DNA of 64,000 nt, from positions 32,942-96,941 of IMG/VR virus record IMGVR_UViG_3300017911_000967; one strand, 5' to 3'. Source of the stretch: a virus (Duplodnaviria; Caudoviricetes). The position numbers and the translations under genes were made by a program. Position 1 is the first letter of the stretch; the number at the start of each line of letters is the position of its first letter. The notes under the pieces are model-generated. The model had not been told where the DNA came from. It did no database searches and was given only the letters and a program-made list of their open reading frames with translations. This document shows, piece after piece, positions 4,638 through 52,442 of this stretch.

Positions 4638-7600
4638 ATGTCAAGAAAAATCATTAATACAGGAACGGGAGTTAACGACGGGTCGGGTGACACGCTTCGT
4701 ACTGCCGGTGAAAAAATTAATGACAACTTCGCTGAGATCTATAGTCTTATAACAACCGACAGCGGGATTACATTACAAGAGATAACTGACTTAATCAATT
4801 CGTCAGTCCAAACCTCTATTGATGATATTGATTTTAGTGAGATTGTTTCAAGTGTTGATTTAATTGCAAACGTAGTTGCGCAACAAGGTCTTCACGATAA
4901 TATCATTAATAGTTTAAACGCAGACGTACAAACCCTATTGGCTGGTGGTGGTGCAGTGGGACCACAAGGTCCTGTTGGTCCACAAGGTGGAGTTGGTCTT
5001 CAAGGTGGGGTTGGTCCTCAAGGTAGTCCAGGCGCACAGGGTTTCCAAGGTGTCCAAGGTAACCCAGGCGAGATGGGACCTCAAGGCGCCCAAGGTGCTC
5101 AAGGTTTTCAAGGTGTCCAAGGTAACGTTGGAGAAATGGGTCCACAGGGTGCACAAGGCGCTCAAGGTTTTCAGGGGGTCCAAGGTAACGTTGGTGAGAT
5201 GGGACCACAAGGTGCACAGGGCGCTCAGGGTTTCCAAGGTGTTCAGGGCAACGTCGGTGAGATGGGACCGCAGGGCGCACAGGGTGCTCAAGGTTTTCAG
5301 GGGGTCCAAGGTAACGTCGGTGAGATGGGACCACAGGGTGCCCAAGGTGCGACTGGATTCCAAGGTGTGCAGGGCAACGTTGGAGAAATGGGTCCTCAAG
5401 GTGCACAGGGTGCAACCGGATTCCAAGGTGTTCAGGGCAACGTCGGTGAGATGGGTCCACAAGGTGCACAAGGTCCTCAAGGTTTCCAAGGTGTTCAAGG
5501 TAATGTCGGTGAGATGGGTCCTCAAGGTGCCCAAGGTTCAACTGGTTTCCAAGGTGTTCAAGGTAACGTTGGTCCGTTAGGTCCTCAAGGTGCCCAAGGT
5601 TCAACTGGTTTCCAAGGTGTTCAAGGTAACGTTGGTCCGTTAGGTCCTCAAGGTGCACAAGGTCCTCAAGGTTTTCAAGGTGTTCAAGGTAACGTTGGTC
5701 CACTAGGTCCACAAGGATCTCAGGGCGCACAAGGTTTTCAGGGGACACAAGGCAATCCAGGCCCACTAGGTCCACAGGGATCTCAAGGTGCTCAGGGATT
5801 CCAAGGTCTTCAAGGTAACCCAGGCCCACTAGGTCCACAGGGATCTCAAGGTGCTCAGGGATTCCAAGGTCTTCAAGGTAACCCAGGCCCAAGAGGACCA
5901 CAGGGACAACAAGGCGCAACAGGTAACAGAGGTGCGACGGGTAACGTTGGTGAAGTAGGACCACAGGGTCCTCAAGGTTCTCAGGGTTTCCAAGGTGTCC
6001 AAGGTGAGGTCGGTGACAAAGGTCCACAGGGATCTCAGGGCGCACAAGGTTTCCAAGGTGTCCAAGGTGAGGTCGGTGACAAAGGTCCACAGGGATCTCA
6101 AGGTGCTCAAGGTTTTCAAGGTGTAACCGGAGAGGTTGGTGATAAAGGACCACAGGGTTCTACCGGACCGATGGGTTCACAAGGTGTAACTGGAGAGGTT
6201 GGTGATAAAGGACCACAGGGTTCCACTGGACCAACAGGTTTCCAAGGTATCACGGGTAACCCAGGCCCACTAGGACCACAGGGCGCAACTGGTGCTACTG
6301 GTGAACGAGGATTGCAAGGCCAACCCGGCCCTGCGGGACCTCAAGGTGTAACTGGTGCTCAAGGTATTCAGGGACAGACCGGACCAGAAGGTCCAAGTGG
6401 TGCACCAGGCGATCCTGGCCCTCAAGGTCCAGCAGGAACTACTCCAGGCCCTCAAGGTCCAACGGGTAACACTGGAGAACCAGGCCCGCAAGGTCCAGCA
6501 GGAACTACGCCTGGCCCACAAGGACCTCAAGGTAATACGGGTGAACCTGGCCCACAAGGTCCACAGGGAAGACAAGGTGCAACTGGACCAGATGGTGTTC
6601 AGGGTGTTCAAGGTCCTCAAGGACAACAAGGTGTAACAGGATCTATTGGTGCGCAGGGTCCACAGGGACAACAGGGTCCTCAAGGTAGACAGGGCGCCAC
6701 TGGTTTTGTTGGACCACAAGGTGCTATCGGAGATCAAGGTCCTCAAGGACGACAGGGTGCTACTGGTGTCGTTGGACCACAAGGCACTACTGGTGAAACG
6801 GGACCACAAGGTTTTCAAGGTTCTACGGGTCCAGTTGGTCCACAGGGTGTCACCGGAGATCAAGGTCCGCAAGGTAGACAAGGCGCTACGGGTTCAGTCG
6901 GTCCACAAGGTGTTACCGGAGATCAAGGTCCTCAAGGACGACAGGGTGCTACGGGTCCAATTGGACCACAAGGGGTTCAGGGACAACAGGGTCCTCAAGG
7001 CAGACAGGGTGCCACTGGTGTTCTAGGTCCACAGGGAACGCAAGGTCCCCAAGGACAACAAGGTATTCAGGGACAGACAGGTAATGTTGGTCCACAAGGT
7101 GTTACCGGAGATCAGGGACCACAAGGTAGACAAGGCGCTACGGGTCCAGTCGGACCACAGGGGGTTCAAGGTCAACAAGGTCCGCAAGGTCGCCAAGGTG
7201 CGACAGGTAATGTGGGTCCGCAGGGTATCACTGGTGATCAAGGACCGCAGGGTCGCCAAGGCGCTACGGGTCCAGTCGGACCGCAAGGCATAACTGGTGA
7301 CCAAGGTCCACAGGGAAGACAAGGCGCAACTGGTGTCGTTGGACCACAGGGTATCACTGGTGATCAAGGACCGCAGGGTCGCCAAGGCGCTACGGGTCCA
7401 GTCGGACCGCAAGGCATAACTGGTGACCAAGGTCCGCAGGGTCGTCAAGGTGCAACTGGTGTCGTTGGACCACAGGGTGTGACTGGTGATCAGGGTCCTC
7501 AAGGACGACAGGGTGCTACGGGTCCAGTCGGACCACAGGGGGTTCAAGGTCAACAAGGTCCACAGGGAAGACAAGGTGCAACTGGTGTCGTTGGACCACA

Positions 7601-8786
7601 AGGTGTGACTGGCGACCAAGGCCCACAAGGTAGACAAGGTGCGACAGGTAATGTTGGACCACAGGGTGTCCAAGGACAACAGGGTCCACAGGGTCGCCAA
7701 GGTGCAACAGGTAATGTTGGACCACAAGGTGTTCAGGGACAACAGGGACCACAAGGCAGACAAGGTGCAACAGGTAATGTTGGACCACAGGGCGTACAAG
7801 GACAACAAGGTCCTCAAGGAAGACAGGGGGCGACAGGTAATGTTGGTCCTCAAGGTGTTCAGGGACAACAGGGTCCACAGGGTCGCCAAGGTGCAACTGG
7901 TAATGTTGGTCCTCAAGGTGTCCAAGGTCAACAAGGACCACAAGGTAGACAAGGTGCAACAGGTAATGTTGGACCACAAGGTGTCCAAGGTCAGCAAGGT
8001 CCTCAAGGAAGACAAGGTGCAACTGGTGTCACTGGTGCTCAAGGACAACAAGGTCAACAGGGTCCTCAAGGTAGACAGGGTGCCACTGGTGTCCAAGGTC
8101 AGCAGGGTCCACAAGGTAGACAGGGTGCCACTGGTGTCCAAGGTCAGCAGGGTCCACAAGGTAGACAGGGTGCCACTGGTGTCACTGGTGCACAAGGTGC
8201 TCAGGGACAACAGGGACCACAGGGTCGTCAAGGTGCAACTGGTGTCACTGGTGCTCAAGGTGCACAAGGTGCTCAGGGACAACAGGGACCACAGGGTCGT
8301 CAAGGTGCCACTGGACCAGATGGTGCGCAGGGACAACAGGGTCCTAGAGGTCGCCAAGGTAATCAAGGTCAACCAGGCCCAGACGGTCCTCAAGGTGCAA
8401 CAGGTGTTGCGGGTGTAACTGGTCAACAGGGTCCAGTCGGTGGATTCGGTAACGCAGTATTATTCAATACATCGACTTCGTTCCCATCGAATGTAAACGC
8501 AACAGCCTCCAGTGGAATTAAATCTTTCCGCACAGTTGATAAGATCTTTATCGGTGACGTTTGGTGGCACATCAATACGGGTCGAGTATTCAGATCAACA
8601 TCAAATGTGACTGGGTCAGGAAACGCTAACTTCACAGAGTTGACTAACAACCAAGGATTTGTTGATATGAGTGGTCTCCTAAATACAGGGACATCACCTA
8701 ATGAACGAATTGAGTTTTCGTCAACGTCTATAGACATTTATGATAACAGCAATAGTTTGAGGGTGAAGATCGGTAAGTTGAACTAA
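4638..8786 (+). CDS. Giant collagen-like fibre protein with gp9/gp10-like N-terminal baseplate anchor
   Basis: N-terminus [31 protein letters not shown] resembles the T4 gp9/gp10 N-terminus; ~389 Gly-X-Y triplets; C-terminal IYD...LRVKIGKL. Confidence 0.88.
4950..8456 (+). repeat. Gly-X-Y collagen repeat region ([18 protein letters not shown] blocks)
   Basis: Continuous triplets with only two single-residue interruptions (GTTP near 6434 and 6501). Confidence 0.95.
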
Positions 8787-22551: not shown

Positions 22552-22559
22552 TATAAATA
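22552..22559 (+). promoter_or_regulatory. T4-type late promoter TATAAATA
   Basis: Exact consensus upstream of the 1602-aa repeat protein. Confidence 0.8.
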
Positions 22560-22610: not shown

Positions 22611-25600
22611 GTGTCAGCATCTAGTATACCACTAAAAATTCAAAATGCTAATGGTGACCTACAAGAATTCACTCCATCGGACGAATTATTTCTTTCGTAT
22701 GCAGTGGGACAAGCATTAGTTGCGGCCGCATCTAATGACGTTGGTAATATCAGTTTGACTGAAGGCCAATCAATCGGTTCATTTGTAGATTCTTACTACA
22801 ATGAAATATCTGGCACCCACCCTGCTTCACAGATCACGGGTGCCTCAGTGACCACCACTCTGAAGCAAGTGAGTGGCCCAGCAGATGAATCCGGTGCAGA
22901 CTTTGTCCGTCCAGTAGGTTATTACGACGTTGATCCAAACCCAGGCTTCTACGAAATGGTAGACGGGGACTTGGACAACCTAGCAGGTCGTGTTCTGTCT
23001 AACTTAGTACAGAACGACTATATCGGTACTTTCAAACTGTCCGCTACCCAACCAAGTGCAGACTATACAAAGTTCATTGACTCTGTATTCTCCGACACTC
23101 ACGGTAATGGTGCAGGTGGTACCGTAGTAACAAACTACCACATTTGGATGCGTACTTCTATGACGGCGGTTGCTCCAGTTCGTCCAGTAGCGACAAGCTA
23201 CGACGGTTCTGGTTTCAACGGTCTACGTGAAATGACAGATGCCCAGATCCAGTACACACTAGGTCAACGCATCAAGTCACTTCGTGCTACTTCCGGAGCG
23301 ATTGGTTCATACCAACTACGTTCAACAGCACAGGGCGCACCAACAGTCCCAGGCACATGGGTGTCTGTAGGCACTGCACAGAACACACGTCGTACACCAG
23401 TTGACGTTGCATACGCAAGAACTCGCGTATCTTCATACAACCGTGCACGTGTTTCTGCATACACTCGTACTCGTACATCTTCATATACGCGTAACAGTGT
23501 CAGTACATTTACTCGCACATTCGTAGGAAACTACGTCGGTGCATATTCACGTGACTTTGTAGGCAACTACTCACGTGACTTTGTTGGGAACTACTCACGT
23601 ACTCGCCCATCATCGTACTCAGGTACATACGCACGTACTCGCGTATCATCGTATTCACGTACTCGCCTAACTGCGTTTACTGGATACTTCGCGGGAACTT
23701 ACTCACGTGCTCGTGTTTCGGTTTACACTCGTAACCGCGTCACACCATTCACTGGTACATTCTCACGTAACCGTACTTCATCGTACACTCGTGGCCGTGT
23801 ATCATCTTACGTAGGCACTTACGCTCGCACACGTGTATCTTCATACTCAGCAGATTACACACGTAACCGTGTATCAACATATTCAGGAACTTATGCGGGA
23901 ACATACTCCCGTCTACGTGTTTCTGCGTATGCTGGAACATACACGCGCAACCGTGTTTCTTCTTATGCTGGAACATACACACGCACACGCGTATCTGCAT
24001 ATGCGACAGACTTTACCCGCGTCCGTGAACAGAACTTCGCAGGGACTTACACTGGTTACTATACTGGCGTATTCTCTCGTGCTCGTGTATCAACTTATAC
24101 GCGTAACCGTGTAACAGGTTTCGCAGGTAACTTCATCGGAAACTACTCTCGCAACTTCCAAGGTAACTATTCACGTAACTTCGTGGGTAACTACTCTCGT
24201 GGATTTGCTGGTAACTTCGTAGGTAACTACTCTCGCGTATCAACACGTACATCAACTCGCACACGTTACAGTGCTTACGCTCGTACACGCATCACTAACT
24301 ACGTTGGTGACTTTGCTCGTGATCGCGTCACTAACTTTGCGGGTAACTTCGTAGGAAACTACGCTCGCACCTTCGTAGGTAACTACGGTGGTAACTATAT
24401 CGGAAACTACGCTCGTGACTTCGTTGGAAACTACGTTGGTAACTACGCTCGTGCATATGTAGGTAACTACTCTCGCGGATTCGTAGGTAACTACGGTCGT
24501 AACTTCCTTGGAAACTTTGTCGGCAACTACAGCCGCAACTTCCTTGGTGACTTCGTCGGAAACTACGCTCGTGGTTTCGTCGGCGACTTCGTTGGAAATT
24601 TCGTAGGTAACTATGCACGTACTTCAACTCGTACATCTACTCGTACTCGTTACAGTGCATACGCTCGTACTCGTGCGACAAACTATACAAGAACTCGTGG
24701 TTCTTCTTACGCTCGTACTCGTGTCACTAACTACGTTGGTAACTTCACGCGCACATCTACTCGTAGCAGACCATCTACGTTCTCTTACGCACGTACTCTA
24801 TACTACGCAGGTGACTTCGTAGGTAACTATGGTCGTACTCGCGTAACAAACTACACTCGTGCTTCAGCGGTAGGTGTAACCTATACAGGTAACTACACAC
24901 GTAACCTATACTACGTCGGTAACTATGCCCGTGCATTCGCAGGAGATTTCGTAGGTAACTATGCTCGTAACCGTGCGTTCTCATACGTAGGTAACTACGC
25001 TCGTAACCGTGCGTTCTCATACGCAGGTAACTACTCACGTACTCGTGTAACAAACTTTGCAGGGAACTTCGTAGGCAACTACGCTCGTAACTTTGTGGGT
25101 AATTATAGTCGACAAGCGGGATTCTCTCGTAACTATGCTGGTAACTATTCTCGTAACTTTACTCGGGCCCGTTCGTTCTCATTCGCAGGTAACTACACAC
25201 GTACTGTTACATCAACTCGAACTTCTACTGGTACCACATGGGTCAATTTGCCAAACGGATCGACAGGCCCTACCAGCGCTGGCCATACTTACATTTACTA
25301 TAATGAAGATAGAGATCGATGGATCGGTAAGATAAATGGTCAGTGGTTATACTCGAACTATTCCGGAAATAGATTCTACTACTTTGGTTCGACGCCAGGA
25401 GCTATCGGAACAACGTTCTCGACAGTAGCTTATAACGGGTCTCCGGCCGGATTCTGGCGAGTAGGTGTTTCCTATTATGATACGAACGATGATAGAGATT
25501 ATCACTATATTCAGCAACAAAGCACGAATTCCTACACCGGAAACTTTGTAGGTAACTTAACATACACGCGCACCCGTGCTGGTACCTATACTGGTAACTA

Positions 25601-27419
25601 CTCTCGCGCATATGTACGTTGGCGCAGTCAACAATATACACGTACTCAGAACTATTCAAGAACTCGAGCTGCGGCTTACACACGTGATCGAGTCACTAAC
25701 TTCGCAGGTAACTTCGGTGGTACGTATACGCGTACTCGTGCTGGTAACTACACTGGTAACTACGCACGTACTCGTGCTGGTAACTACACTGGTAACTACG
25801 CTCGCACGTCAACACGTACACGTTACTCTGCATACGCAAGAACTCGCGTTGCGACAGGTACTTACACGCGTAACCGCGCTGCGACACTATACTACACTGG
25901 TGACTTTGTAGGTAACTTCGCAGGTGCATACACACGCACATCAACACGTACATCTACTAGGCCTGGTTACTACACACGTACACTAACTTACGCAGGTAAC
26001 TACGTAGGTAACTATACGACAACGTTCACTGGCGACTTCGTCGGTAACTATGCGCGTAACTTTGTGGGTGACTATGTTGGTAACTTCGTAGGTAACTATG
26101 CGCGTGGATTTGCTGGTAACTTTGCTGGTAACTTTGTAGGTGAATATGCACGTACTCGTGTAACGAACTACACTCGTACTCGTAACTCTGCGTACACACG
26201 TAACCGCACACAGAACTTTGCGAACTCTTACGCTCGCACACGTGAAACAAACTTCACTGGTTACTACACACGCAACCGTGCATCCGCATACGCTCGTACT
26301 CGTTACAGCGCATACGCTCGCACACGTGTAACTAACTACGTAGGTGACTTCACACGCGATTCAACCCGCACATCTACTCGTAACCGTGTTCCGACATACA
26401 CTCGTGATCGTGTAACTAACTTCGCTGGTAACTTCGTAGGAAACTACGCAACAACGTTTACCGGAGACTTCGTTGGTAACTACGCACGTGGATTTGCTGG
26501 TGAATATGCTGGTAACTTTACTGGTAACTATGCTCGTACTTCAACGCGCACTCGTTACTCTGCATACGCACGTACTCGTGTATCTGCATACGTCCGCAAC
26601 CGTGGATCATCATACACCCGTGACCGTGTAACTAACTTTGCTGGTGACTTCGTAGGTAACTACGCTCGCACCTTCTCTGGTCAGTACACACGTCAGTTCG
26701 TTGGTGAGTATGTTGGTGATTACGTAGGAACGTTCGCAGGTAACTACGTTGGTAACTTCACTCGTGGATTCGGTGGAAACTACGTCGGTAACTATGCACG
26801 TGGATTTGCTGGTAACTACGTAGGAAACTATAACCGTAGTTTCTTAGGTGAGTACACTGGTGCTTACTCTGGTACTTACTCTCGTGGATTTGCGGGTAAC
26901 TATGTAGGTAACTACAACCGTGGGTTCGTTGGTGAGTACACTGGCGCTTACAACCGTACATTCACAGGTAACTACTCTCGTGACTTCTCCGGTCAGTACA
27001 CACGCGACTTTGCTGGTGACTTCGTAGGTAACTACAGTCGTCAGTTCGCAGGTGAGTACACTGGTGCTTATGCGCGTGACTTCGTAGGTAACTTCGTGGG
27101 TAACTACAACCGTGGTTTCGTTGGTGAGTACACTGGTGCTTACTCTCGTGACTTCGTAGGTAACTACTCTCGTGTCCGTGTATCTGCATACGCACGTATC
27201 AGAACGTCTTCTTACTCAGGAGCATACACACGTGACCGTGTTTCTTCTTACGTAGGTGACTTTACTGGTAACTATACTCGTAACTTTGGTGGTAACTACA
27301 CCCGTGACTTTGCTGGAAACTACGCACGTAGCTTCGTCGGTAACTACATCGGTGCAACCATCTCTGATACACAGACCCACGTTACTGATACATATACATT
27401 ATATGTAAGGGTTGCATAA
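22611..27419 (+). CDS. Giant tetrapeptide-repeat structural protein; predicted self-complementary antiparallel beta-hairpin fibre
   Basis: GTG start after a late promoter; ~270-aa base domain, arm 1 (res 269-872), ~100-aa tip, arm 2 (res 976-1579), short C-terminal strand; units xRxR, xSxY, xGNY, xRxF. Confidence 0.85.
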   Translation: MSASSIPLKIQNANGDLQEFTPSDELFLSYAVGQALVAAASNDVGNISLTEGQSIGSFVDSYYNEISGTHPASQITGASVTTTLKQVSGPADESGADFVRPVGYYDVDPNPGFYEMVDGDLDNLAGRVLSNLVQNDYIGTFKLSATQPSADYTKFIDSVFSDTHGNGAGGTVVTNYHIWMRTSMTAVAPVRPVATSYDGSGFNGLREMTDAQIQYTLGQRIKSLRATSGAIGSYQLRSTAQGAPTVPGTWVSVGTAQNTRRTPVDVAYARTRVSSYNRARVSAYTRTRTSSYTRNSVSTFTRTFVGNYVGAYSRDFVGNYSRDFVGNYSRTRPSSYSGTYARTRVSSYSRTRLTAFTGYFAGTYSRARVSVYTRNRVTPFTGTFSRNRTSSYTRGRVSSYVGTYARTRVSSYSADYTRNRVSTYSGTYAGTYSRLRVSAYAGTYTRNRVSSYAGTYTRTRVSAYATDFTRVREQNFAGTYTGYYTGVFSRARVSTYTRNRVTGFAGNFIGNYSRNFQGNYSRNFVGNYSRGFAGNFVGNYSRVSTRTSTRTRYSAYARTRITNYVGDFARDRVTNFAGNFVGNYARTFVGNYGGNYIGNYARDFVGNYVGNYARAYVGNYSRGFVGNYGRNFLGNFVGNYSRNFLGDFVGNYARGFVGDFVGNFVGNYARTSTRTSTRTRYSAYARTRATNYTRTRGSSYARTRVTNYVGNFTRTSTRSRPSTFSYARTLYYAGDFVGNYGRTRVTNYTRASAVGVTYTGNYTRNLYYVGNYARAFAGDFVGNYARNRAFSYVGNYARNRAFSYAGNYSRTRVTNFAGNFVGNYARNFVGNYSRQAGFSRNYAGNYSRNFTRARSFSFAGNYTRTVTSTRTSTGTTWVNLPNGSTGPTSAGHTYIYYNEDRDRWIGKINGQWLYSNYSGNRFYYFGSTPGAIGTTFSTVAYNGSPAGFWRVGVSYYDTNDDRDYHYIQQQSTNSYTGNFVGNLTYTRTRAGTYTGNYSRAYVRWRSQQYTRTQNYSRTRAAAYTRDRVTNFAGNFGGTYTRTRAGNYTGNYARTRAGNYTGNYARTSTRTRYSAYARTRVATGTYTRNRAATLYYTGDFVGNFAGAYTRTSTRTSTRPGYYTRTLTYAGNYVGNYTTTFTGDFVGNYARNFVGDYVGNFVGNYARGFAGNFAGNFVGEYARTRVTNYTRTRNSAYTRNRTQNFANSYARTRETNFTGYYTRNRASAYARTRYSAYARTRVTNYVGDFTRDSTRTSTRNRVPTYTRDRVTNFAGNFVGNYATTFTGDFVGNYARGFAGEYAGNFTGNYARTSTRTRYSAYARTRVSAYVRNRGSSYTRDRVTNFAGDFVGNYARTFSGQYTRQFVGEYVGDYVGTFAGNYVGNFTRGFGGNYVGNYARGFAGNYVGNYNRSFLGEYTGAYSGTYSRGFAGNYVGNYNRGFVGEYTGAYNRTFTGNYSRDFSGQYTRDFAGDFVGNYSRQFAGEYTGAYARDFVGNFVGNYNRGFVGEYTGAYSRDFVGNYSRVRVSAYARIRTSSYSGAYTRDRVSSYVGDFTGNYTRNFGGNYTRDFAGNYARSFVGNYIGATISDTQTHVTDTYTLYVRVA
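23415..25226 (+). repeat. Hairpin arm 1: 4-residue-period repeats
   Basis: ARTR VSSY NRAR VSAY ... VGNY ... TRTS; 604 codons. Confidence 0.9.
25536..27347 (+). repeat. Hairpin arm 2: 4-residue-period repeats complementary to arm 1
   Basis: TGNF VGNL ... ARSF VGNY; 604 codons. Confidence 0.9.
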
Positions 27420-27440
27420 GCGACCCTTCTATGTTATAAT
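27412..27440 (+). promoter_or_regulatory. Putative sigma70-type promoter TTGCAT-N17-TATAAT (extended -10 TGn)
   Basis: Spacing and extended -10 read directly from the sequence. Confidence 0.5.
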
Positions 27441-27526: not shown

Positions 27527-27988
27527 ATGAGTTATAGACGTTGGATGGACAACGCTTTTTGGGAAACAGAAGAGAAGAAAGAACTAAACTGTATCCTAGA
27601 AATGGAAGATGATGTGGGTCGTGTCACCCGTCAACAGATGTTGTTGGCAAGACATGATCGTGATGGAAATCCTAACGAGTTGTTTGCGGAAGTCGTGGAC
27701 GCACTTGGTGAAGAGTTGATCGATAAGGAAACTACCGATCGAGTCGAACGCAAAGCTGCGGAGGCGGAAGAAGAGAAACAACGTGAGTTAGAACATCAAA
27801 AGGCAAGGAAGCTTGAGAAACTGTTCAACTACAAACTAGAAGCGTTTGAGGTTGAAGAGATCAAGAACTCTAAGAACCGCAAGTTGAAGGCAAAATTGCG
27901 TCGTGCAAAATCAAAGATTGAAGTAGATATGTACTCAATCATGATTCTACAAGACCAACTAGAGGCCGAGACAGATGGAAAAGAGTAA
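27527..27988 (+). CDS. Hypothetical acidic helical protein (candidate fibre chaperone)
   Basis: GGAG upstream, 153 aa, charged helical C-half; function inferred from position only. Confidence 0.6.
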   Translation: MSYRRWMDNAFWETEEKKELNCILEMEDDVGRVTRQQMLLARHDRDGNPNELFAEVVDALGEELIDKETTDRVERKAAEAEEEKQRELEHQKARKLEKLFNYKLEAFEVEEIKNSKNRKLKAKLRRAKSKIEVDMYSIMILQDQLEAETDGKE

Positions 27989-28712
27989 AGGGTTTATTAT
28001 CGTTGCGTCAAAGAAGCGCAACTTTTATTTGTACGCAATCAATCTTGCAGAGTCTCTCAGGGACTACTATGAACCAGAAGAGGAATGCAAGATCTGTTTG
28101 GTGACTGAGGAACGATTCCTTGATGACCGTGGTCGAGATGTCGCAGACGATATTCTCTTATGTGACGATCACTACCGCGCTAAGTTATGGGGTATGGCGA
28201 AATCGCCGTATGACCTAACGATGTATATCGATGCTGATATGGAAGTAGAACACGAAGACATCTGTAAAGTTTGGGATGAAATGAAGGACCATGATGTGGT
28301 CTTTACTGCTTTGACAGATGATCGTGACTACATATATGCAGAACGTGACTTTGACACTCCAGAGGGTGTTTCTAAGTTCACACTATGCGGTGCAGTATGT
28401 TTATATGATATGTCCAAACCGATTGTGCGTGAATTCATGAATGATTGGTGGGACTTGACATTCAGACAGATGAATGACACTTGGTGGCCAGACGGGTATG
28501 CGGACAGTCTCAAATCTTGGGACCAGTTCTCACTCTGGTGGTTGACTGAGAAAGAAGAAAAGTATAAGGATCTCAAAGTTGGAATCTTTGATGACGACTT
28601 GAGATGGAACTACTACAACGCACTTAATTGGGCAATAACAAAACCAGAAACAGGGCCAGTGATTATCCGTCACTTCTCTGCTGGTCTTAATAAGGATACA
28701 CCAATCGTATGA
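27975..28712 (+). CDS. GT-A glycosyltransferase (GT8-like/nucleotide-diphospho-sugar transferase)
   Basis: AINLAESLR, K...MAKSPYDLTMYIDAD (DxD), WDQFSL, RWN motifs. Confidence 0.78.
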   Translation: MEKSKGFIIVASKKRNFYLYAINLAESLRDYYEPEEECKICLVTEERFLDDRGRDVADDILLCDDHYRAKLWGMAKSPYDLTMYIDADMEVEHEDICKVWDEMKDHDVVFTALTDDRDYIYAERDFDTPEGVSKFTLCGAVCLYDMSKPIVREFMNDWWDLTFRQMNDTWWPDGYADSLKSWDQFSLWWLTEKEEKYKDLKVGIFDDDLRWNYYNALNWAITKPETGPVIIRHFSAGLNKDTPIV

Positions 28713-29416
28713 CACAGTTAAACGACCAATATCTAAAGCACGTCGAAGTTAAGAACCCTGAGTTGCTTGCGATTCTGGACAACTACGCTGGACTACCGAA
28801 GATTCCTGGCTTTGCAGAGAACTGTCACTGCACTTCTCAGGAACGTATTCGTCAGCGTAACTGGTACGTTGGACCAAAGTACATGCAAGAGATTGTAGAT
28901 GAGGGAACGCAACACGAAGGTTTCCCAGATGAGATGGTAGGTTATAACTTTAAACTATCAGATCGCGCTCACCAGATGTTCGAGTCAGATGCAGATCCAA
29001 TCTTCAAGCGTGACATGACGCACATGTTGTCAGATTTAAACGACAAGATGATGAACTTCCTGTCAGTCAAGCACAATGCGCTTGCAGCGGTATACCCGCC
29101 AGGCGGTTTCATTGCATGGCACAACAACGCTAACGCGCCAGGATTCAATCTAATCTTCTCTTACTCAGAGAGTGGTTCAGGTTGGTTCGACTACATCCAT
29201 CCGGAAACTAAAGAAGTTATCCGTTGTCAAGACAAGCCAGGTCAGTGGACTTGCAAGGCAGCATACTTCGGACACTACGGAGAAGAAGAGAAACTAATGT
29301 ATCACGCTGCATCTTCAGAAGATGATTGGCGCGTAACAGTTTCTTACGTCTTCGACTGGTCTGAGACTTCAGAAGAATTCCGTGAGATGGTCTTAGAAGA
29401 CATCGCTTCAGAATAA
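28709..29416 (+). CDS. 2OG-Fe(II) oxygenase-like (DSBH) protein, paralog of 51798-52442
   Basis: YPPGGFIAWHNN...MYHAA...RVTVSY. Confidence 0.7.
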   Translation: MTQLNDQYLKHVEVKNPELLAILDNYAGLPKIPGFAENCHCTSQERIRQRNWYVGPKYMQEIVDEGTQHEGFPDEMVGYNFKLSDRAHQMFESDADPIFKRDMTHMLSDLNDKMMNFLSVKHNALAAVYPPGGFIAWHNNANAPGFNLIFSYSESGSGWFDYIHPETKEVIRCQDKPGQWTCKAAYFGHYGEEEKLMYHAASSEDDWRVTVSYVFDWSETSEEFREMVLEDIASE

Positions 29417-29442: not shown

Positions 29443-29450
29443 TATAAATA
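29443..29450 (+). promoter_or_regulatory. T4-type late promoter TATAAATA
   Basis: Exact consensus. Confidence 0.8.
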
Positions 29451-31212: not shown

Positions 31213-34200
31213 ATGGCATTTAGGCAGATTAAATCCCCAGCATTAGCGGACAAGGCGGTAATCGATACCAAACTTGACGAAAGTGCGGTACAGGGACAAT
31301 CAACCCTTACAGGTATGACCGACCCATCATCGTGTTTTACACTTCTGTATGATGTAGCTTCGGACTCTCTAAAGAAGATCGGTGCTGATGCATTCTTCGC
31401 ATCATTCTCAACCGACGATCTAGCAGAAGGTTCAAATCTATACTACACCGCAGAACGTGCAAACGCTGATGTTGCTGCACAAATCGACGCAGATGTTCAA
31501 GTCGAAACAAATCGTGCGATAGCCGAAGAAGGTCGTATCGAATCAGAATCTAAGTCACGTGACAATAAGTTAGAAGGTCAAGATTCTGCATTAAGTAACC
31601 GTATCACAAACGAAGTAAATCGTGCGGAAAGTGTAGAAACTCGTATCGAAGACGAATCTAAGCAACGCGACAGCGCACTTGGTGTTCGTATCGACAACGT
31701 CCTAAACAACACGGACGAAGTTGCACTTAACTCTCTTGCAGAAATCGTTACTGCGTTCCAAAACGCAGATAGTGCACTTTCTGGTTCTATCATCCAGAAC
31801 GCTAATGATATCGTCGCAGAACGCGAACGTGCAGTTGCTCGTGAGAACCAGATCGAGACAGAATACCGTCTTGCAGATAGCGCACTAAGCGATCGTATCA
31901 TCGAGCGTAAGAACGCAACTGACAGTGATTTCACTCACTTCACACTTGCTGATCAAAATCTACAAAACCAGATCACGTCTAACGATGGCGACATCGCTAC
32001 ATTGTTCGCACAGGATTCTGCTGAAACGCAACGCGCTTCAGATGAAGAATCTCGTATCGAACAAAAACTTAATGAAGAAATCGCACGTTCTAAGGGCGTT
32101 GACTCAGCTCACAGTGCACAGATCACCGCTGCTAACCAAGCACGTGTTGCAGACGACAACGTTGTTCGTTCAGAGTTCGCTGCTGCTGACCAAGTAATCA
32201 AAGCTCAAGTAGAAGCACGTGACGACGCACTTATCGGTGACGCAAGTGTTGACGGAACTTCTGGAAACACAATCACCGATCGTATCGCAACTGCAAAAGC
32301 AGAAGCAATCCTCGAAGGTAATGATGTTGTTGCATTCGAGAACCAACAACGTCGTAACGCAGATAGTGATCTACAAGCACAGATCGATGCAGAAGTTGCT
32401 CGCGCAACTGCAGCAGAAGACGCACTGGGCGATCGTATCGATTCAGACTACACTGCTAACTGGGCAGACCACGCGGCAATCCGTGAAGAGTTTGCTGCTG
32501 GTGACGCAAACCTACAGTCTCAGATCGACTTCATCACATCTAACACAGACTCCGCTGCACTAGATTCTCTAACAGAGATCGTTGCAGAAGTTGCTCGTGT
32601 AGATGGAACAGTAAACGCATTGATCCAGACTAACGTCGGTGACATCGAAGCAGAACGTCTAGCACGTATCGCTGCTGACAGTGCATTGAGTACTCGCATT
32701 GATATCGAAGTATCTACACGTCGTGCTGGTGACTCTGCAGCTAACAAGCGTATCGACGACGCAATTCTAGATTACATTGCTCGCGATTCAGATGTTCTAT
32801 CATCTGCAAAAGCATACACAGATCAAGAAGCAGACGCACACCAAGCTGCTGGTGAAGAGTACACACGTCAGTATGTAACTCCACGCATCGGTGACGCAAC
32901 TGTCGACGGAACTGCTGGTAACACAATCACAAACCGCATCACCACTGCTAAGTCAGAAGCGATGACATACGCAGCGGGTCTAGATTCAGACGAACGCGCT
33001 CGTGCGACGACTGCTGAAGGTCTACTAAGTGGTCGCGTTGGTCACGTCGAAGGTCTACTAGACTCAGCGACATTCGAAACTGTTGCACAAACAGTTGTCC
33101 CAGCGATCAACGAACTACACGGTGATGCAGTATCATACGATCTACAATCGAAAGACCGCGACACTGCTCTTGGTCTTCGTATAGACCTACTAGAAGACGG
33201 AACTTCAATCGACGTTGAAGATCTAAATATTCGTCTTGGTATCGAAGAAGGTGTTCGTGAACGCGCTGACTCAGATCTACTTGCACGACTAATCGTTGAA
33301 GAGAACCGTTCTAAACTAGAAGACGGTCAACACGATTCGGACATTAGTGCTCTAGGTCTTGTCACTAGTGGTATCCGTGGTGATCTAACGATCGAAACCA
33401 CTACTCGTATCGACGAAGACACTATTTTACGTAACCGTATCGCTGCTGACAGTGATCGACTAACACTTCTAGATTCACAAGCTCACGTCCGTATGGATGT
33501 AATCTTGGCAGGAAGTGTAGCAAAAGATTCAGATCTACAATCACAGATCAACGCAGAAGTTGCTCGTTCAACCGCGAAAGATTCTTCACACGATTCTGAC
33601 ATCGCAGTACTATACAACCAAGTTGGTACAGATGTACAAGATCTACAGGATCAAATCGATGCCGAAATCGAACGTGCGACAGGTGTAGAGTCTAATCTAC
33701 AATCACAGATCACTTCAAACGATGGCGACATCACTGCACTACAAGCGAAAGATTCTGATCTACAAGCTCAGATCTCTTCAAACGACGCAGACATCTTTGC
33801 ACTACAAGCGAAAGATTCTAACCAGCACGCTACTGCAATGCAAGCGATCGCTGACGAAACACTTCGCGCTACTGGCATTGAAACTGGTCTACGTTCGGAT
33901 GTAGATAGTGCACACGCACGTATCGATCACATCCTAGACGGTTCTTCAACTGATCTAGATCAGATGCTAGAAATCGTCAACGCATTCCGTGACGCTGACA
34001 ATGACCTAGATGGTGTTATCACCAACAACACTGGTCGCATCACTACACTAGAGAATCGTGCAGACGAAACTGATGACGAACAGGTTATTCAGGATGGTCG
34101 ACTAACTTCACTAGAAGGTCGCATGACTGCGAACGAAGCTGTCGATTCAGATCAGTCAGTAACTCTTGGTGATCACGAATCTCGCATCACAGCGAACGAA

Positions 34201-36723
34201 ACTCGTATCGGTGATAAGTCACTTGTATTGAAGACTCCTTCACAGTCACTGTCTGAAGCAATCAACGATCTATACGACGACATCACAGCAGAAGGTACTT
34301 CTCTTGTTGGTGTAACTGATCGTGTTGAAGTTCTAGAAACTCGCGCTGATGCAGATTCAGACCTACAGGTTGTTCAAAATGCACGTCTAGATTCTGCTGA
34401 AGGTCGTTTGACTGTAAACGAAGGCGACATCGACGCACTAGAAACTAAGATGGGTACTGTTGCACTGGATACAACTGCACAAGCAGTACGTCCAGCAATC
34501 AACGAACTACACACTCAGATAGATAGCAACACTTCACGTGTTGGTGTCGTAGAGGGTCGTGCAGACGTAACTGATATCGAACAGGCTGCACAGGATGCAC
34601 GTCTAGATTCACTAGAATCAGATCGCGCATTCAACATCATCAAAGATACACAACAAGACACACGTCTTGATGGTCTAGAAAATCGTGTCGATATGGACAC
34701 AGTCTTCCAGACATCTGCAAACAAAGTTGTTCCAGCAATCAACGAACTGAAAGGTCGTCTTGATGCCGCTGATCAGTTTGCACAAGATGAGAAGGTGCGT
34801 CAAGATCAAGATTCTGATCGTCTAACGACAGAAATCGCTACTCGTGCGCAAGAAGACTCTGCACTTGAAGGTCGTCTAAACGGTCGTATCGATTCAGCAG
34901 AGAACAAGATCGCTGGGGACATCTCAGTATCTCTTGCAGAAGCAAAGGCATACACACGCGAATACGCAGATGACGCTGAGTCAGATGCACGTGCATATGC
35001 ACTTGGTTTGGTCTCTCAGGAGAACGAAGCACGTATTCTCAACCAGCAAGCTCAACGTCAGTTGATCGATGGTAACCACGAAATCGGCACACAGAGAGAT
35101 AACGCACAAGACCTACTAATCTCGGGTCTACAGTCAGAACTAGATGCAACTCAAGTGGGCGCTGGTCTAGGTCCAGATGGTGAATATCTAACTCCAGATT
35201 CTTCATCAACATACCTACAAGCAACTACTTCATTGATGAATGCGATCCTTACTCTTGATACTAACCTTGCGACAGTATCTGGTGTAAACAACAATGGTCG
35301 TAACAGTCTGCAACAACAGATCAACAATGAAATCACTGCTCGTCAGAACGGTGACTCAGATCTACTTGCACGTCTAATCGCTGAAGAAGTTTACACTAAG
35401 GCACAAGATTCTGCAATCAACGGTCGTATCGACAACACGAACACAGCACTTGCACGAGAAGTTGCTGATCGTCTAGCAGGTGATTCTGATCTACAAGCAC
35501 AGATCGACTTCATCACATCTAACACAGACTCTGCTGCACTAGATTCTCTAACAGAGATCGTTGCTGAGTTCCAACGTGTAGATGGTGGTCTATCTGGTCT
35601 AATTTCTGCTAACGCTGCAGAGATTGTCCGTGTAGAAGAGGAATCTAAGGAACGCGACTCTGACGAAGAAGCTGCACGTATCGCTGGTGACGCTGCTCTA
35701 CAAACTCAAGTAGACGCACGTGTCAAGAAGGCTGGGGACACAATGTCTGGTGACCTAGACATGACAGGTAACATGGTTACAGGTCTTGGTGTTCCAGTTG
35801 AAATGTCAGATGCGACAAACAAAGCATACACAGACGCACGTCTTGCTGAACAGCACATTTCGCAGTTCACTACAGACAGTCTAACTGAAGGAACACGACT
35901 ATACTTCACAGAGGCACGTGCTCGCGCGGCAGTCTCGGTGTTTGATGTAGACGGAGAAGGTGACGTTTCTTACGACGCTAACTCTGGTGTTATTTCAATC
36001 GCAACAGGTAAGAAGTTCGTAGAACTAGAAGATGTCGTAACATCTGAAATCACTGACAATATGGGCGGTTTCGTTGCTCGTGTCAAGACAGATGGTACAG
36101 GTATCGAACTAGTTCCACCAACACAACTAGCATTCAACGACGCTAAGCGCCAGACAATCAACGGTGACGGAATCGCGAGTACATTCTCACTAGATTTCTA
36201 CACTGCACAGATCAACGCTCTAGTATTCGTCGGTGGTGTTATTCAGGATCCGGGCGTACACTACACAATCAACTCAGGAACGCAAGAAATTACGTTCACA
36301 TCTGCGGTACCACTAGGTACACAGGCGGTAGTAATCGCACAGTCAACTAACTCAGTTGGTGTCCTAGATCCTAAGTCAGTAGGTGTTGAAACACTTGCAG
36401 ATAACCTAAAGGCATTCGAACACGGTCTAGACGTAGTTGCTGGTACTTCACCAACAGTCGTCTCTTCATTCGATCCAACAGTATATCGTTCTGCGAAGTA
36501 CGTTATCACTGTAGAACAGAACGGTGAGTTTGAGACTCGCGAGTGTATGGTTGTCCATGATGGAACAAGTGCTTACATTACCGAATACGGTATTGTCTTC
36601 ACAGGTTCTTCGTTACTAGGTGACACAGATGTACGTTTCATCAACAGCAATGTTGAACTAATGTACACTACTGAGTCTGGTGACGCAGTTGTTTCAGTTG
36701 CGGTAACTTACGTTAACGTATAA
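31213..36723 (+). CDS. Giant coiled-coil fibre protein (1836 aa), Asp-Ser rich
   Basis: Heptad E..RA...E/D..LQ.QI repeats, LDSLTEIV knots, DA.NK.Y.D motif, C-terminal YRSAKY.I....EYG domain. Confidence 0.8.
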   Translation: MAFRQIKSPALADKAVIDTKLDESAVQGQSTLTGMTDPSSCFTLLYDVASDSLKKIGADAFFASFSTDDLAEGSNLYYTAERANADVAAQIDADVQVETNRAIAEEGRIESESKSRDNKLEGQDSALSNRITNEVNRAESVETRIEDESKQRDSALGVRIDNVLNNTDEVALNSLAEIVTAFQNADSALSGSIIQNANDIVAERERAVARENQIETEYRLADSALSDRIIERKNATDSDFTHFTLADQNLQNQITSNDGDIATLFAQDSAETQRASDEESRIEQKLNEEIARSKGVDSAHSAQITAANQARVADDNVVRSEFAAADQVIKAQVEARDDALIGDASVDGTSGNTITDRIATAKAEAILEGNDVVAFENQQRRNADSDLQAQIDAEVARATAAEDALGDRIDSDYTANWADHAAIREEFAAGDANLQSQIDFITSNTDSAALDSLTEIVAEVARVDGTVNALIQTNVGDIEAERLARIAADSALSTRIDIEVSTRRAGDSAANKRIDDAILDYIARDSDVLSSAKAYTDQEADAHQAAGEEYTRQYVTPRIGDATVDGTAGNTITNRITTAKSEAMTYAAGLDSDERARATTAEGLLSGRVGHVEGLLDSATFETVAQTVVPAINELHGDAVSYDLQSKDRDTALGLRIDLLEDGTSIDVEDLNIRLGIEEGVRERADSDLLARLIVEENRSKLEDGQHDSDISALGLVTSGIRGDLTIETTTRIDEDTILRNRIAADSDRLTLLDSQAHVRMDVILAGSVAKDSDLQSQINAEVARSTAKDSSHDSDIAVLYNQVGTDVQDLQDQIDAEIERATGVESNLQSQITSNDGDITALQAKDSDLQAQISSNDADIFALQAKDSNQHATAMQAIADETLRATGIETGLRSDVDSAHARIDHILDGSSTDLDQMLEIVNAFRDADNDLDGVITNNTGRITTLENRADETDDEQVIQDGRLTSLEGRMTANEAVDSDQSVTLGDHESRITANETRIGDKSLVLKTPSQSLSEAINDLYDDITAEGTSLVGVTDRVEVLETRADADSDLQVVQNARLDSAEGRLTVNEGDIDALETKMGTVALDTTAQAVRPAINELHTQIDSNTSRVGVVEGRADVTDIEQAAQDARLDSLESDRAFNIIKDTQQDTRLDGLENRVDMDTVFQTSANKVVPAINELKGRLDAADQFAQDEKVRQDQDSDRLTTEIATRAQEDSALEGRLNGRIDSAENKIAGDISVSLAEAKAYTREYADDAESDARAYALGLVSQENEARILNQQAQRQLIDGNHEIGTQRDNAQDLLISGLQSELDATQVGAGLGPDGEYLTPDSSSTYLQATTSLMNAILTLDTNLATVSGVNNNGRNSLQQQINNEITARQNGDSDLLARLIAEEVYTKAQDSAINGRIDNTNTALAREVADRLAGDSDLQAQIDFITSNTDSAALDSLTEIVAEFQRVDGGLSGLISANAAEIVRVEEESKERDSDEEAARIAGDAALQTQVDARVKKAGDTMSGDLDMTGNMVTGLGVPVEMSDATNKAYTDARLAEQHISQFTTDSLTEGTRLYFTEARARAAVSVFDVDGEGDVSYDANSGVISIATGKKFVELEDVVTSEITDNMGGFVARVKTDGTGIELVPPTQLAFNDAKRQTINGDGIASTFSLDFYTAQINALVFVGGVIQDPGVHYTINSGTQEITFTSAVPLGTQAVVIAQSTNSVGVLDPKSVGVETLADNLKAFEHGLDVVAGTSPTVVSSFDPTVYRSAKYVITVEQNGEFETRECMVVHDGTSAYITEYGIVFTGSSLLGDTDVRFINSNVELMYTTESGDAVVSVAVTYVNV

Positions 36724-51336: not shown

Positions 51337-51801
51337 ATGAGCGTAACATCTAACACAAACTTCTTGCAACCTACGGGATTCCGTGTCGTCATCGAACGCG
51401 CAAAATACGGAAACCTAGAATTCTTTGCGCAGTCAGTAACTCACCCAGGCTCTAGTGCGAACGCAGTGGATCGACCGATCGCAAAGATTCAGAGATTCCC
51501 TGTTGCCGCAGACACCATCGAGTACACAGATCTATCGATGCAGTTGATCCTAGATGAAGACATGGTCGCATACAAGGAAATGCAGGATTGGATGCAACGC
51601 ACGGTAGACACCTCAGAAGATCTATCTCAAGACATTACGGTCATCATCCTAACCAGTCACAACAACCCAAACATAAAGATCAAGTATGAGGGATGCCTTC
51701 CTGTCCAGCTTGGATCTGTTGAATTGAATTCCACAATCGGAGACGTTGCATATATAACATACGACGCAACATTTAAGTACACTAAATTCACTATATCATG
51801 A
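51337..51801 (+). CDS. gp3: Tail tube terminator / head-proximal tail completion protein gp3
   Basis: NFLQPTGF, LEFFAQSV..PG, ILDEDM..Y.E...W; synteny after gp23. Confidence 0.85.
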   Translation: MSVTSNTNFLQPTGFRVVIERAKYGNLEFFAQSVTHPGSSANAVDRPIAKIQRFPVAADTIEYTDLSMQLILDEDMVAYKEMQDWMQRTVDTSEDLSQDITVIILTSHNNPNIKIKYEGCLPVQLGSVELNSTIGDVAYITYDATFKYTKFTIS

Positions 51802-52442
51802 TGGTAAAATTAGATATAAAGAACCGGAACCTCTTAGAGATTCTGGAGGATTTCCGATATACGTATCGAGAGTTGTACCAACCCGAACAGACAAACCGAT
51901 GTCTAGTCGAGGAGTTGCGCGGGCAGGCAGATTACTACACGGGTGATGAGGAGATGTGGCGAGTAATCGACGAAGGTCGTGGTCACAGAGGCGCCGCAGA
52001 GAACTCCGTCTGCCATCCAATCAAACCCGATCACTACTTCGGGACGCACCCAGAAGAATACCGCAAGACGTGGAACTCACTCAACTCCAGTTTGATGGAG
52101 GAACTGGGTGTGCAACACAGTGCACTCTCAACACTCTACCCGCCTGGCGGTTTCATCGGTTGGCATAACAACGCAGACGCATCCGCATACAACGTGATCT
52201 TCACGTGGTCCGAAAAAGGAGATGGATGGTTCAAGTATGTCGACCCAAAGACCGAACAGGTAATCGCGGTTCAAGATGAACAGGGGTGGAACTGTAAGGC
52301 GGGATACTTCGGTGACTATGACTCAGGTAATGTCGTTTATCATGCAGCTCGTACAGAATGTTACCGTATGACTCTTAGTTACGTGTTGGGTCACGACGAA
52401 GACTATTGGAAAGATTGTATTGAAACGATCACCAATATGTGA
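51798..52442 (+). CDS. 2OG-Fe(II) oxygenase-like (DSBH) protein, paralog of 28709-29416
   Basis: YPPGGFIGWHNNA...VYHAA...RMTLSY. Confidence 0.7.
   Translation: MMVKLDIKNRNLLEILEDFRYTYRELYQPEQTNRCLVEELRGQADYYTGDEEMWRVIDEGRGHRGAAENSVCHPIKPDHYFGTHPEEYRKTWNSLNSSLMEELGVQHSALSTLYPPGGFIGWHNNADASAYNVIFTWSEKGDGWFKYVDPKTEQVIAVQDEQGWNCKAGYFGDYDSGNVVYHAARTECYRMTLSYVLGHDEDYWKDCIETITNM

Follow-up and report, generated by a model that had tools for sequence, protein, structure and literature searches.

What are three small, overlapping genes doing at the end of a very long tail-fibre gene, and do they belong to the fibre or are they simply its neighbours? The question is raised by a 64,000-nucleotide stretch of viral DNA (Duplodnaviria; Caudoviricetes), positions 32,942 to 96,941 of IMG/VR record IMGVR_UViG_3300017911_000967, which is referred to here as the window and is numbered from its first letter. 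On the plus strand, positions 22611..27419 encode a fold-back fibre of 1602 amino acids (aa), made up of a base domain and of repeat arms rich in Tyr, Thr, Gly and Arg. Directly 3′ of this repeat fibre gene lie three co-oriented open reading frames (ORFs), also on the plus strand: P1 (27527..27988, 153 aa), an orphan; P2 (27975..28712, 245 aa), a GT-A glycosyltransferase (GT) resembling glycogenin and family GT8; and P3 (28709..29416, 235 aa), a prolyl-4-hydroxylase-like protein with a double-stranded β-helix (DSBH). P1 and P2 share 14 nt, and P2 and P3 share 4 nt (ATGA). A preliminary description of the window had reported three overlapping ORFs between the fibre gene and the next late promoter, and both the coordinates and a copy of the promoter-like motif TATAAATA at 29443 agree with this. 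Judged by gene order, we consider fibre, P1, GT and P3 to be one conserved four-gene late module of uncultured marine T4-like phages. It is likely that the module serves the fibre in some way, and we give a probability of about 50% to the reading that, as a whole, it is a fibre-dedicated modification module whose chemistry is suggested by sequence and by predicted structure.

P1, P2 and P3 are real genes, constrained and translationally coupled. Hundreds of metagenomic homologs under clear constraint were found for each of them, so they are not chance ORFs, even though none of the three has a significant match in Pfam, PHROG or NCBIfam. The linkage between these genes and the fibre was examined in about 390 viral loci gathered from four types of seed (the alignment of near GTs, the base domain of near-clade fibres, two increasingly distant GT subfamilies, and the base domain of short distant fibres), and a pooled analysis with hidden Markov models (HMMs) yielded 198 distinct GT sequences from viral contigs. 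P1 adjoins the GT gene in 188 of 189 testable blocks, the sole exception (L322) being a fusion of the two; P3 follows within 1.2 kb after the GT in all 178 testable cases, on the opposite strand in two; and a fibre homolog is present no more than 2.5 kb upstream in 162 of 167 blocks, directly adjacent in 158. The preliminary description had named a cassette occurring independently of the fibre genes as its refutation, and no such independence emerged from these loci. Where the fibre is missing or displaced, the details vary: in one block (L072) the contig stops 3.7 kb upstream, inside the fibre gene, another (L069) has less than 2 kb of upstream sequence, and in a third (L407) a fibre detected 1.4 kb upstream in one pass was not re-detected in the pooled HMM analysis. 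Two further contigs, from a single sub-lineage (L070:6276-9477 and L080:5998-9484), carry three genes of approximately 500-590, 151 and 422 aa between the fold-back fibre and the cassette, the first of which has a typical tail-fibre N-terminus.

The order fibre-P1-GT-P3 remains intact down to about 35% GT identity, despite changed outer neighbours. In the clade of the window, a Tfa-type chaperone gene (PF16778) lies just 5′ of the fibre gene and an LtfC-like gene directly 3′ of P3; in distant loci, the LtfC-like gene is found 2-8 kb away instead of directly adjacent and the downstream island is wholly different. Of the other fibre genes that were tested, o1081, o122, o485 and the TFA chaperone gene, none was detected next to the block among the more divergent loci. 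In two distant loci that were annotated (L199 and L166), a gene for a giant DUF4815 protein precedes the block, with one small ORF between them. Beyond P3, each of these two has an island of variable content, encoded to a large extent on the opposite strand (L166:11344-18380; L199:11313-15836), with QueC-like, O-methyltransferase, radical-SAM, fatty-acid desaturase/hydroxylase and β-ketoacyl-synthase genes as well as several 200-310-aa proteins that match no family.

Searches of cellular genomes returned three matches in 185,579, all of them short contigs of metagenome-assembled genomes (MAGs) that carry the phage block. These contigs (L244, L245 and L246, labelled Methanobacteriota archaeon, Balneola sp. 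and Rhodobacteraceae bacterium) have the arrangement fibre-P1-GT(-P3) and are probably viral contigs that were binned into MAGs, such that the GT family, as far as its sequence distribution shows, is essentially restricted to viruses. In GenBank, C48C1 is the only phage in which genes of this module turned up, and there the complete set of four is present with unchanged order. Taken as comparative sequence evidence, these surveys strongly support the linkage of the cassette to the fold-back fibre gene.

Is the module also expressed as a unit? The T4-type late-promoter-like motif TATAAATA occurs in 13 copies in the window versus 1.66 expected; one copy lies 5′ of the fibre gene (22552..22559, plus strand), and the next (29443..29450, plus strand) stands ahead of the LtfC-like gene and closes the fibre-P1-GT-P3 unit. 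A survey of 67 distinct blocks of the near clade found the motif upstream of the fibre in 41 of 49, within P1-P3 in none of 67, and past P3, ahead of the following gene, in 64 of 65. The exact motif is nearly absent from the distant clades (2 of 106 upstream, 0 of 97 downstream), and because this bracketing is missing there, the operon argument is restricted to the near clade. Within the unit, a terminator-like scan placed a stem-loop across the fibre stop codon (27407..27428, plus strand), and a second GC-rich stem-loop, with an 8-bp stem, a TTCG loop and a following TTTATT, can be read from the sequence in the gap between the fibre gene and P1 (27458..27484, plus strand); absent from the list produced by the scan, it is a possible attenuator. 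Marine metatranscriptome contigs from four studies cover the stretch, with single contigs reaching from the end of the fibre past P3, but they constitute weak support because DNA carry-over is possible and because contigs do not show transcript ends, strand or level.

For P2, AlphaFold2 (AF2) modelling, Foldseek, structural re-alignment with VIA and sequence alignments all point to a glycosyltransferase. The AF2 model is a single Rossmann-like GT-A domain (predicted local distance difference test, pLDDT, 93; predicted template modelling score, pTM, 0.90). Foldseek returned at least 500 matches at E <= 0.001, those listed being GT-A transferases, and the neighbours are retaining GT-A enzymes: glycogenin, LARGE1, UGGT, α-3-GalT and GlyE. 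Re-alignment with VIA placed glycogenin first (Z 17.2, root-mean-square deviation 3.1 Å over 191 residues), followed by bacterial GT6, the Skp1 galactosyltransferase Gat1, LgtC and GlyE at Z of about 15. An alignment of 47 close sequences shows no variation at D86-A-D88, R68, K70 or H233, and in a 34-sequence alignment extending to about 30% identity, the Asp pair, the Arg and the Lys are invariant and the C-terminal His is nearly so; the fold and the invariant D86/D88 bear out the DxD GT-A enzyme of the preliminary description. P2 shares with glycogenin, Gat1, LgtC and GlyE the GT-A fold over the whole domain, and its DxD and its C-terminal His, a putative third metal ligand, follow the order that a metal site would have. 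It differs from glycogenin and the GT8 clan in having only about 15% identity and in keeping the GT8 motif HxxGxxKPW at H233 only. P2 has no match to Pfam GT8 (PF01501) and just a sub-threshold GT2 hit (16.9 bits versus a cut-off of 23.3), and its profile gave no meaningful match to PDB sequences.

An exhaustive search with the GT profile collected 535 cluster representatives. More distant relatives pass the Pfam thresholds for GT8 and Nucleotid_trans; a remote one, P0461, scores 26.9 bits against PF01501 (cut-off 24.3) and carries a C-terminal sulfotransferase. P0464, also remote, combines the GT with a TPR region and a PF13759 2-oxoglutarate (2OG) oxygenase domain, and the close relative P0317 has an N-terminal methyltransferase domain, which led us to reject an initial candidate assignment of P0317 as a P1-GT fusion. 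At the level of predicted domain architecture, these fusions indicate that GTs of this kind are repeatedly combined with tailoring enzymes. On fold and on the invariant DxD, P2 is best described as a metal-dependent, retaining-type GT-A transferase, divergent but GT8-like, with glycogenin as its nearest relative. Transfer of the sugar would be expected to proceed with retention of configuration, given that the top-ranking fold neighbours are all retaining enzymes. Glycogenin, Gat1 and GlyE glycosylate proteins, and glycogenin does so on Tyr.

P3 was assigned from its AF2 model, VIA and the invariance of its motifs. The model (pLDDT 94) is a double-stranded β-helix, and the Foldseek and VIA matches listed are all 2OG oxygenases, led by prolyl 4-hydroxylases (P4Hs): PHD2 at Z 11.5, Pseudomonas putida P4H at 10.9, and Dictyostelium PhyA, an algal P4H and the chlorovirus enzyme vCPH at about 10, over 150-160 residues. 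The Foldseek matches also include the nucleic-acid demethylases AlkB, ALKBH2/3/5 and FTO. In the predicted active site, H138 stands at the end of a strand, H199 lies in a strand 61 residues further on, and R208-x-T210 occupies the next strand; we take the His/His/Arg spacing to equal that of H313, H374 and R383 in PHD2. What P3 does not have is the iron-binding Asp, the position of which is taken by N140 (H138-N139-N140). In a set of 118 distinct sequences that includes the distant clades and a paralog, this position is Asn in 117 and a gap in one, and never Asp or Glu. W137, H138, N140, N147, D175, K183, H199 and R208 are never substituted in the same set (one to three gapped rows per column), R208 being present in 115 of 118 with gaps in the rest, and T210 is found in 111 of 118, which by motif and position marks the pair as the RxT of 2OG enzymes, whose Arg would bind the C5 carboxylate of 2OG.

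P3 therefore resembles PHD2, the P. putida EF-Tu P4H, PhyA, the algal P4H and vCPH in its DSBH fold and in the order of His, His and Arg, and it differs from P4H-type 2OG/Fe(II) oxygenases in having Asn at the metal-binding Asp, with a fibre in which Pro and Lys are nearly absent from the repeats. The HxD/E...H facial triad that defines 2OG/Fe(II) oxygenases is incomplete in P3, with both His present. Because the HxD feature is absent, P3 is not assignable as a canonical member of that group, and we describe it as P4H-like in predicted fold and in its putative 2OG pocket. No curated model in Pfam, PHROG or NCBIfam matched, nor did the profile match PDB sequences, and no facial triad with an Asn ligand came to light in a literature search for one. 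Replacement of a carboxylate ligand by an amide does have a parallel in the 2-His-1-Gln site of methylphosphonate synthase, a cupin enzyme.

The window also encodes a stand-alone P3 paralog, P3b (51798..52442, plus strand, 214 aa), which lies between the gp19-like gene and uvsY, is 40% identical to P3 and has the same HxN..H..RxT. The context MCP-gp19like-P3b-UvsY-UvsW, in which MCP denotes the major capsid protein, recurs in 80 loci, in none of which did the 4 kb on either side of P3b yield a match to P1 or the GT. Since P3b stands alone and yet keeps the invariant residues, the chemistry of the P3 family, whatever it is, would not be restricted to the cassette. For the preliminary description, which had named a DSBH oxygenase that hydroxylates the exposed Thr/Ser/Asn face of the fibre, the fold is upheld by AF2, Foldseek and VIA while the canonical HxD turns out to be HxN. 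Hydroxylation in the form proposed becomes doubtful, both on account of the lost Asp and of the position of P3b away from GT and fibre, and because Tyr, Thr and Ser of all the fibres already carry hydroxyls, so that a hydroxylase is not needed to make sugar acceptors.

P1 had been described as an acidic, helical chaperone that holds the first arm of the fibre until the second is translated. The window protein is indeed acidic (isoelectric point, pI, 5.09), and the stretch from about residue 66 to 146, rich in charge and free of Pro and Gly, is compatible with helices; the N-terminal 65 residues resemble a small domain, followed by 85 C-terminal residues without Pro or Gly. Acidity is not a constant property, however, as the pI of homologs ranges from 4.9 to 8.5. 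A C-terminal motif, LFxxKLEAFE..IK.SKN..LK..R.AKS..EV, is conserved in all clades. Nothing above noise was found for P1 in Pfam, PHROGs or NCBIfam, where similarity to the known tail-fibre assembly chaperone families (gp57A, gp38 and Tfa) was likewise undetectable, and two Atlas searches returned unnamed viral clusters only. A suggestion that P1 is unusually conserved was rejected, with long-range identity of approximately 67-70% for the GT, 58-69% for P1 and 40-44% for P3.

What adjacency and one fusion do suggest is a connection to the GT. The fusion (L322:7233-8942) is a single 570-aa ORF that contains both P1 and GT domains. In two sister contigs (L316:7228-9325 and L319:4146-6234), an extra domain of about 100 aa is copied at the C-terminus of P1 and at the N-terminus of the GT, and because both copies are present there, the fusion looks like a deletion between the two copies or a collapse during assembly. 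In two other P1 homologs (L253:7355-8026 and L259:7413-8060), the conserved C-terminal helix motif is tandemly duplicated. Because of the fusion and of the constant adjacency of P1 and GT, P1 is a probable partner, adaptor or targeting subunit of the GT, as far as sequence can indicate, and not a holder of the fibre arm.

How does the fibre itself bear on these assignments? The composition of the window fibre (R 11.7, T 12.9, Y 11.2, G 11.6, N 8.8 and S 8.6%, with D+E at 4.6%) agrees with the earlier account of a protein rich in Arg, Thr, Ser, Tyr and Asn. Distant fibres that accompany the cassette are far shorter (324-795 aa, median 417), and their composition, taken from 110 distinct sequences, is different: the median pI is 4.7, the repeats consist of Y 21%, G 20%, T 17% and S 11%, and the medians for Arg, Asn, Pro and Lys are 1.4, 4.7, 0.6 and 0.8%. 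In the six distant fibres whose sequences were inspected, the base domain and the C-terminal strand are retained, and the repeat hairpin is short, with arms of about 30-100 residues. By this comparison, the basic, Arg/Asn-rich arms of 600 residues are a speciality of the lineage of the window. With distant fibres that are short, acidic and Arg-poor, and a P1 whose pI varies from 4.9 to 8.5, an acidic holder for a basic arm is not a conserved principle of the system, and this part of the preliminary description is not supported. Systems that hydroxylate and then glycosylate (collagen LH3/L230, the Skp1 pathway PhyA-Gnt1...Gat1, plant Hyp-O-glycans) modify Pro or Lys, both of which are scarce in the fibre repeats; the base domain has a few conserved Pro residues (P71, P101 and P148), which may be purely structural. 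In three contigs (L270, L281 and L318), two fold-back fibre genes stand in tandem and are followed by one P1-GT-P3 cassette.

When these lines are put together, O-glycosylation of the Tyr/Thr/Ser-rich fibre repeats is probably the activity of the module, a plausible proposal drawn from sequence. Late in infection, the GT, helped or targeted by P1, would move a sugar from a host nucleotide-sugar onto the fibre, which is the presumed substrate or partner of the cassette. The acceptors would be hydroxyls of Thr, Ser or Tyr in the repeat ribbon or in the base domain, and the share of Tyr, Thr and Ser in the repeats means that hydroxyl acceptors would be abundant. P3 may add a second, oxidative modification by way of a 2-His-1-Asn metal site, or it may bind the fibre as a catalytically altered relative of the oxygenases. 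The stem-loops between the fibre gene and P1 could keep the enzymes below the level of the structural protein. A fuller version of this scheme, in which an orphan adaptor and a glycogenin-like GT act on a Tyr/Thr-rich fold-back β-ribbon while a new 2-His-1-Asn class of 2OG oxygenase contributes the oxidative step, the product being a sugar-coated receptor-binding filament, is tentative and in our estimation clearly on the improbable side of even odds.

The surroundings of the module supply other candidates for its target. The stretch is the structural region of a T4-like phage, with genes for portal, prohead protease, scaffold, MCP, gp19-like protein, UvsY and UvsW, and it also holds many fibre genes. 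The MCP (49943-51247) is 77% identical to that of phage C48C1, a phage for which a literature search found no relevant paper, and 59-62% identical to those of Pelagibacter phage HTVC008M, OM43 phage Melnitz and Synechococcus phages alike; because it is about equally distant from these last three groups, the label "cyanophage" is not confirmed. A DS-rich coiled-coil fibre is encoded at 31213-36723. A collagen-repeat protein of 1382 aa with a T4 gp9/gp10-like N-terminus is encoded at 4638-8786 on the plus strand, where the GC fraction rises locally to 0.57; it consists mostly of G-P-Q triplets, with 112 Pro at X and 233 Gln and 66 Thr at Y, and might as such serve a P4H-like enzyme and a GT as another substrate. 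We have down-weighted it as a substrate, as it is not a conserved neighbour and has few Pro at Y.

Several observations weigh against a modification module dedicated to the fibre. Five blocks showed no fibre gene in the 2.5 kb upstream of them, and genes of a structural module may keep their order simply through common descent. P1 cannot be placed in any known fold or family; the fold neighbours of P2 include transferases acting on lipooligosaccharide (LgtC) and on blood-group oligosaccharide (GT6) beside those acting on proteins; P3 fails the defining HxD, which leaves its catalysis uncertain; and its paralog P3b stands with neither GT nor fibre nearby. One alternative is that the three proteins are assembly helpers that aid the folding or trimerisation of the long fold-back ribbon, with P1 as a helical chaperone in the style of gp57A, and P3 and perhaps the GT as enzyme-derived binding proteins or as accessory proteins of the virion. 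P1 is small, charged and probably helical and is encoded right after the fibre gene, P3 has no canonical Asp, the neighbouring tail-fibre assembly chaperone gene shows that the module uses dedicated helpers, and a protein of the 2OG-oxygenase family is found in the virion proteome of a cyanomyovirus (PMC12801897). We nevertheless regard this as unlikely, since the GT keeps the expected catalytic residues (DxD, R68/K70 and the C-terminal His) to about 30% identity, and P3 keeps both His, the RxT and further pocket residues in its 118 sequences, a pattern typical of an active site and not of decay. It is also conceivable, at somewhat longer odds, that the enzymes are genuine and that their target is a different virion protein, such as the collagen-like or the DS-rich coiled-coil fibre, or the receptors or envelope of the host late in infection. 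A P4H-like fold together with a GT recalls the hydroxylation and glycosylation of collagen and Skp1; the window does encode a collagen-repeat protein with Pro at X and Thr at Y; LgtC is among the GT8 neighbours; and cyanomyoviruses have many GTs that are thought to alter the host surface (PMC12801897). The strict partner in all lineages is the fold-back fibre, however, and not collagen, with other nearby genes changing, and the collagen-like protein has just 12 Pro at Y, the position used by classical P4H.

A further possibility is that the four genes are co-inherited neighbours in a conservative structural region, with no functional coupling at all. All the loci belong to marine T4-like phages, in which structural modules generally share a collinear layout, but mere synteny accounts poorly for a block that outlasts its flanking genes, for overlapping genes, for a P1-GT fusion in one contig, for the absence of the promoter motif inside the block in the near clade, and for four families that are missing from all cultured GenBank phages except C48C1, which has all of them; we consider it improbable. 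Least probable is a DNA-hypermodification pair, in which the oxygenase would hydroxylate a base and the GT would glycosylate it, as in base J or in phage TET-plus-GT systems. Pairs of oxygenase and GT are described as modifying phage DNA (bioRxiv 10.1101/2023.12.21.572611), and glycosylated bases are known (PMC13326640). In the window, however, the genes lie inside a late fibre operon and not among genes of DNA metabolism, the GT is nearest to glycogenin-type enzymes, and the matches listed for the P3 fold are mostly protein prolyl hydroxylases and include no TET/JBP chain; this last point weighs just modestly because AlkB-type demethylases do occur among the Foldseek matches.

If the module does modify its fibre, it has partial precedents in other viruses. 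For Mimivirus collagen (L230 and R699), the action of a virus-encoded hydroxylase-type enzyme and a GT-A enzyme on a repetitive structural fibre is established (PMC9546862, PMC12279948, PMC9614988), and mycobacteriophage virions are decorated by phage-encoded GTs (Freeman et al. 2023, PMC10527164, as cited in PMC12801897). Glycosylation of the chlorovirus capsid is a further case in which a virus modifies its own structural protein. The module described here differs from all of these in that the partner is a Tyr/Thr/Gly-rich fold-back tail fibre, in that the enzymes belong to separate, unnamed families, and in that a third, orphan protein is always present. Small genes beside fibre genes are themselves familiar, as T4 gp57A and gp38 and lambda-type Tfa are needed only for fibre maturation; P1 differs from them in being always paired, and once fused, with a GT, which is true of no known fibre chaperone. 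What is known, then, is the decoration or maturation of a structural protein by enzymes that the virus encodes, and what is new is two unnamed enzyme families and one orphan.

Most known cases in which viruses glycosylate structural proteins with enzymes of their own come from giant viruses and mycobacteriophages. To our knowledge, no T4-like phage has been described that encodes enzymes decorating its own tail fibres, and the present module would possibly be the first such case. About 200 distinct variants of marine phages carry the fibre gene and the three small genes as a set, and with some of the fibres only about 330 aa long, the system is a tractable one. Whatever its substrate, the His-x-Asn...His...Arg-x-Thr arrangement of P3 amounts to a natural experiment on the 2-His-1-carboxylate triad and is of interest for non-heme-iron enzymology. 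If fibre modification is indeed what the module does, it would explain how an extremely long, thin ribbon rich in Tyr and Thr stays soluble, protease-resistant or receptor-specific in seawater.

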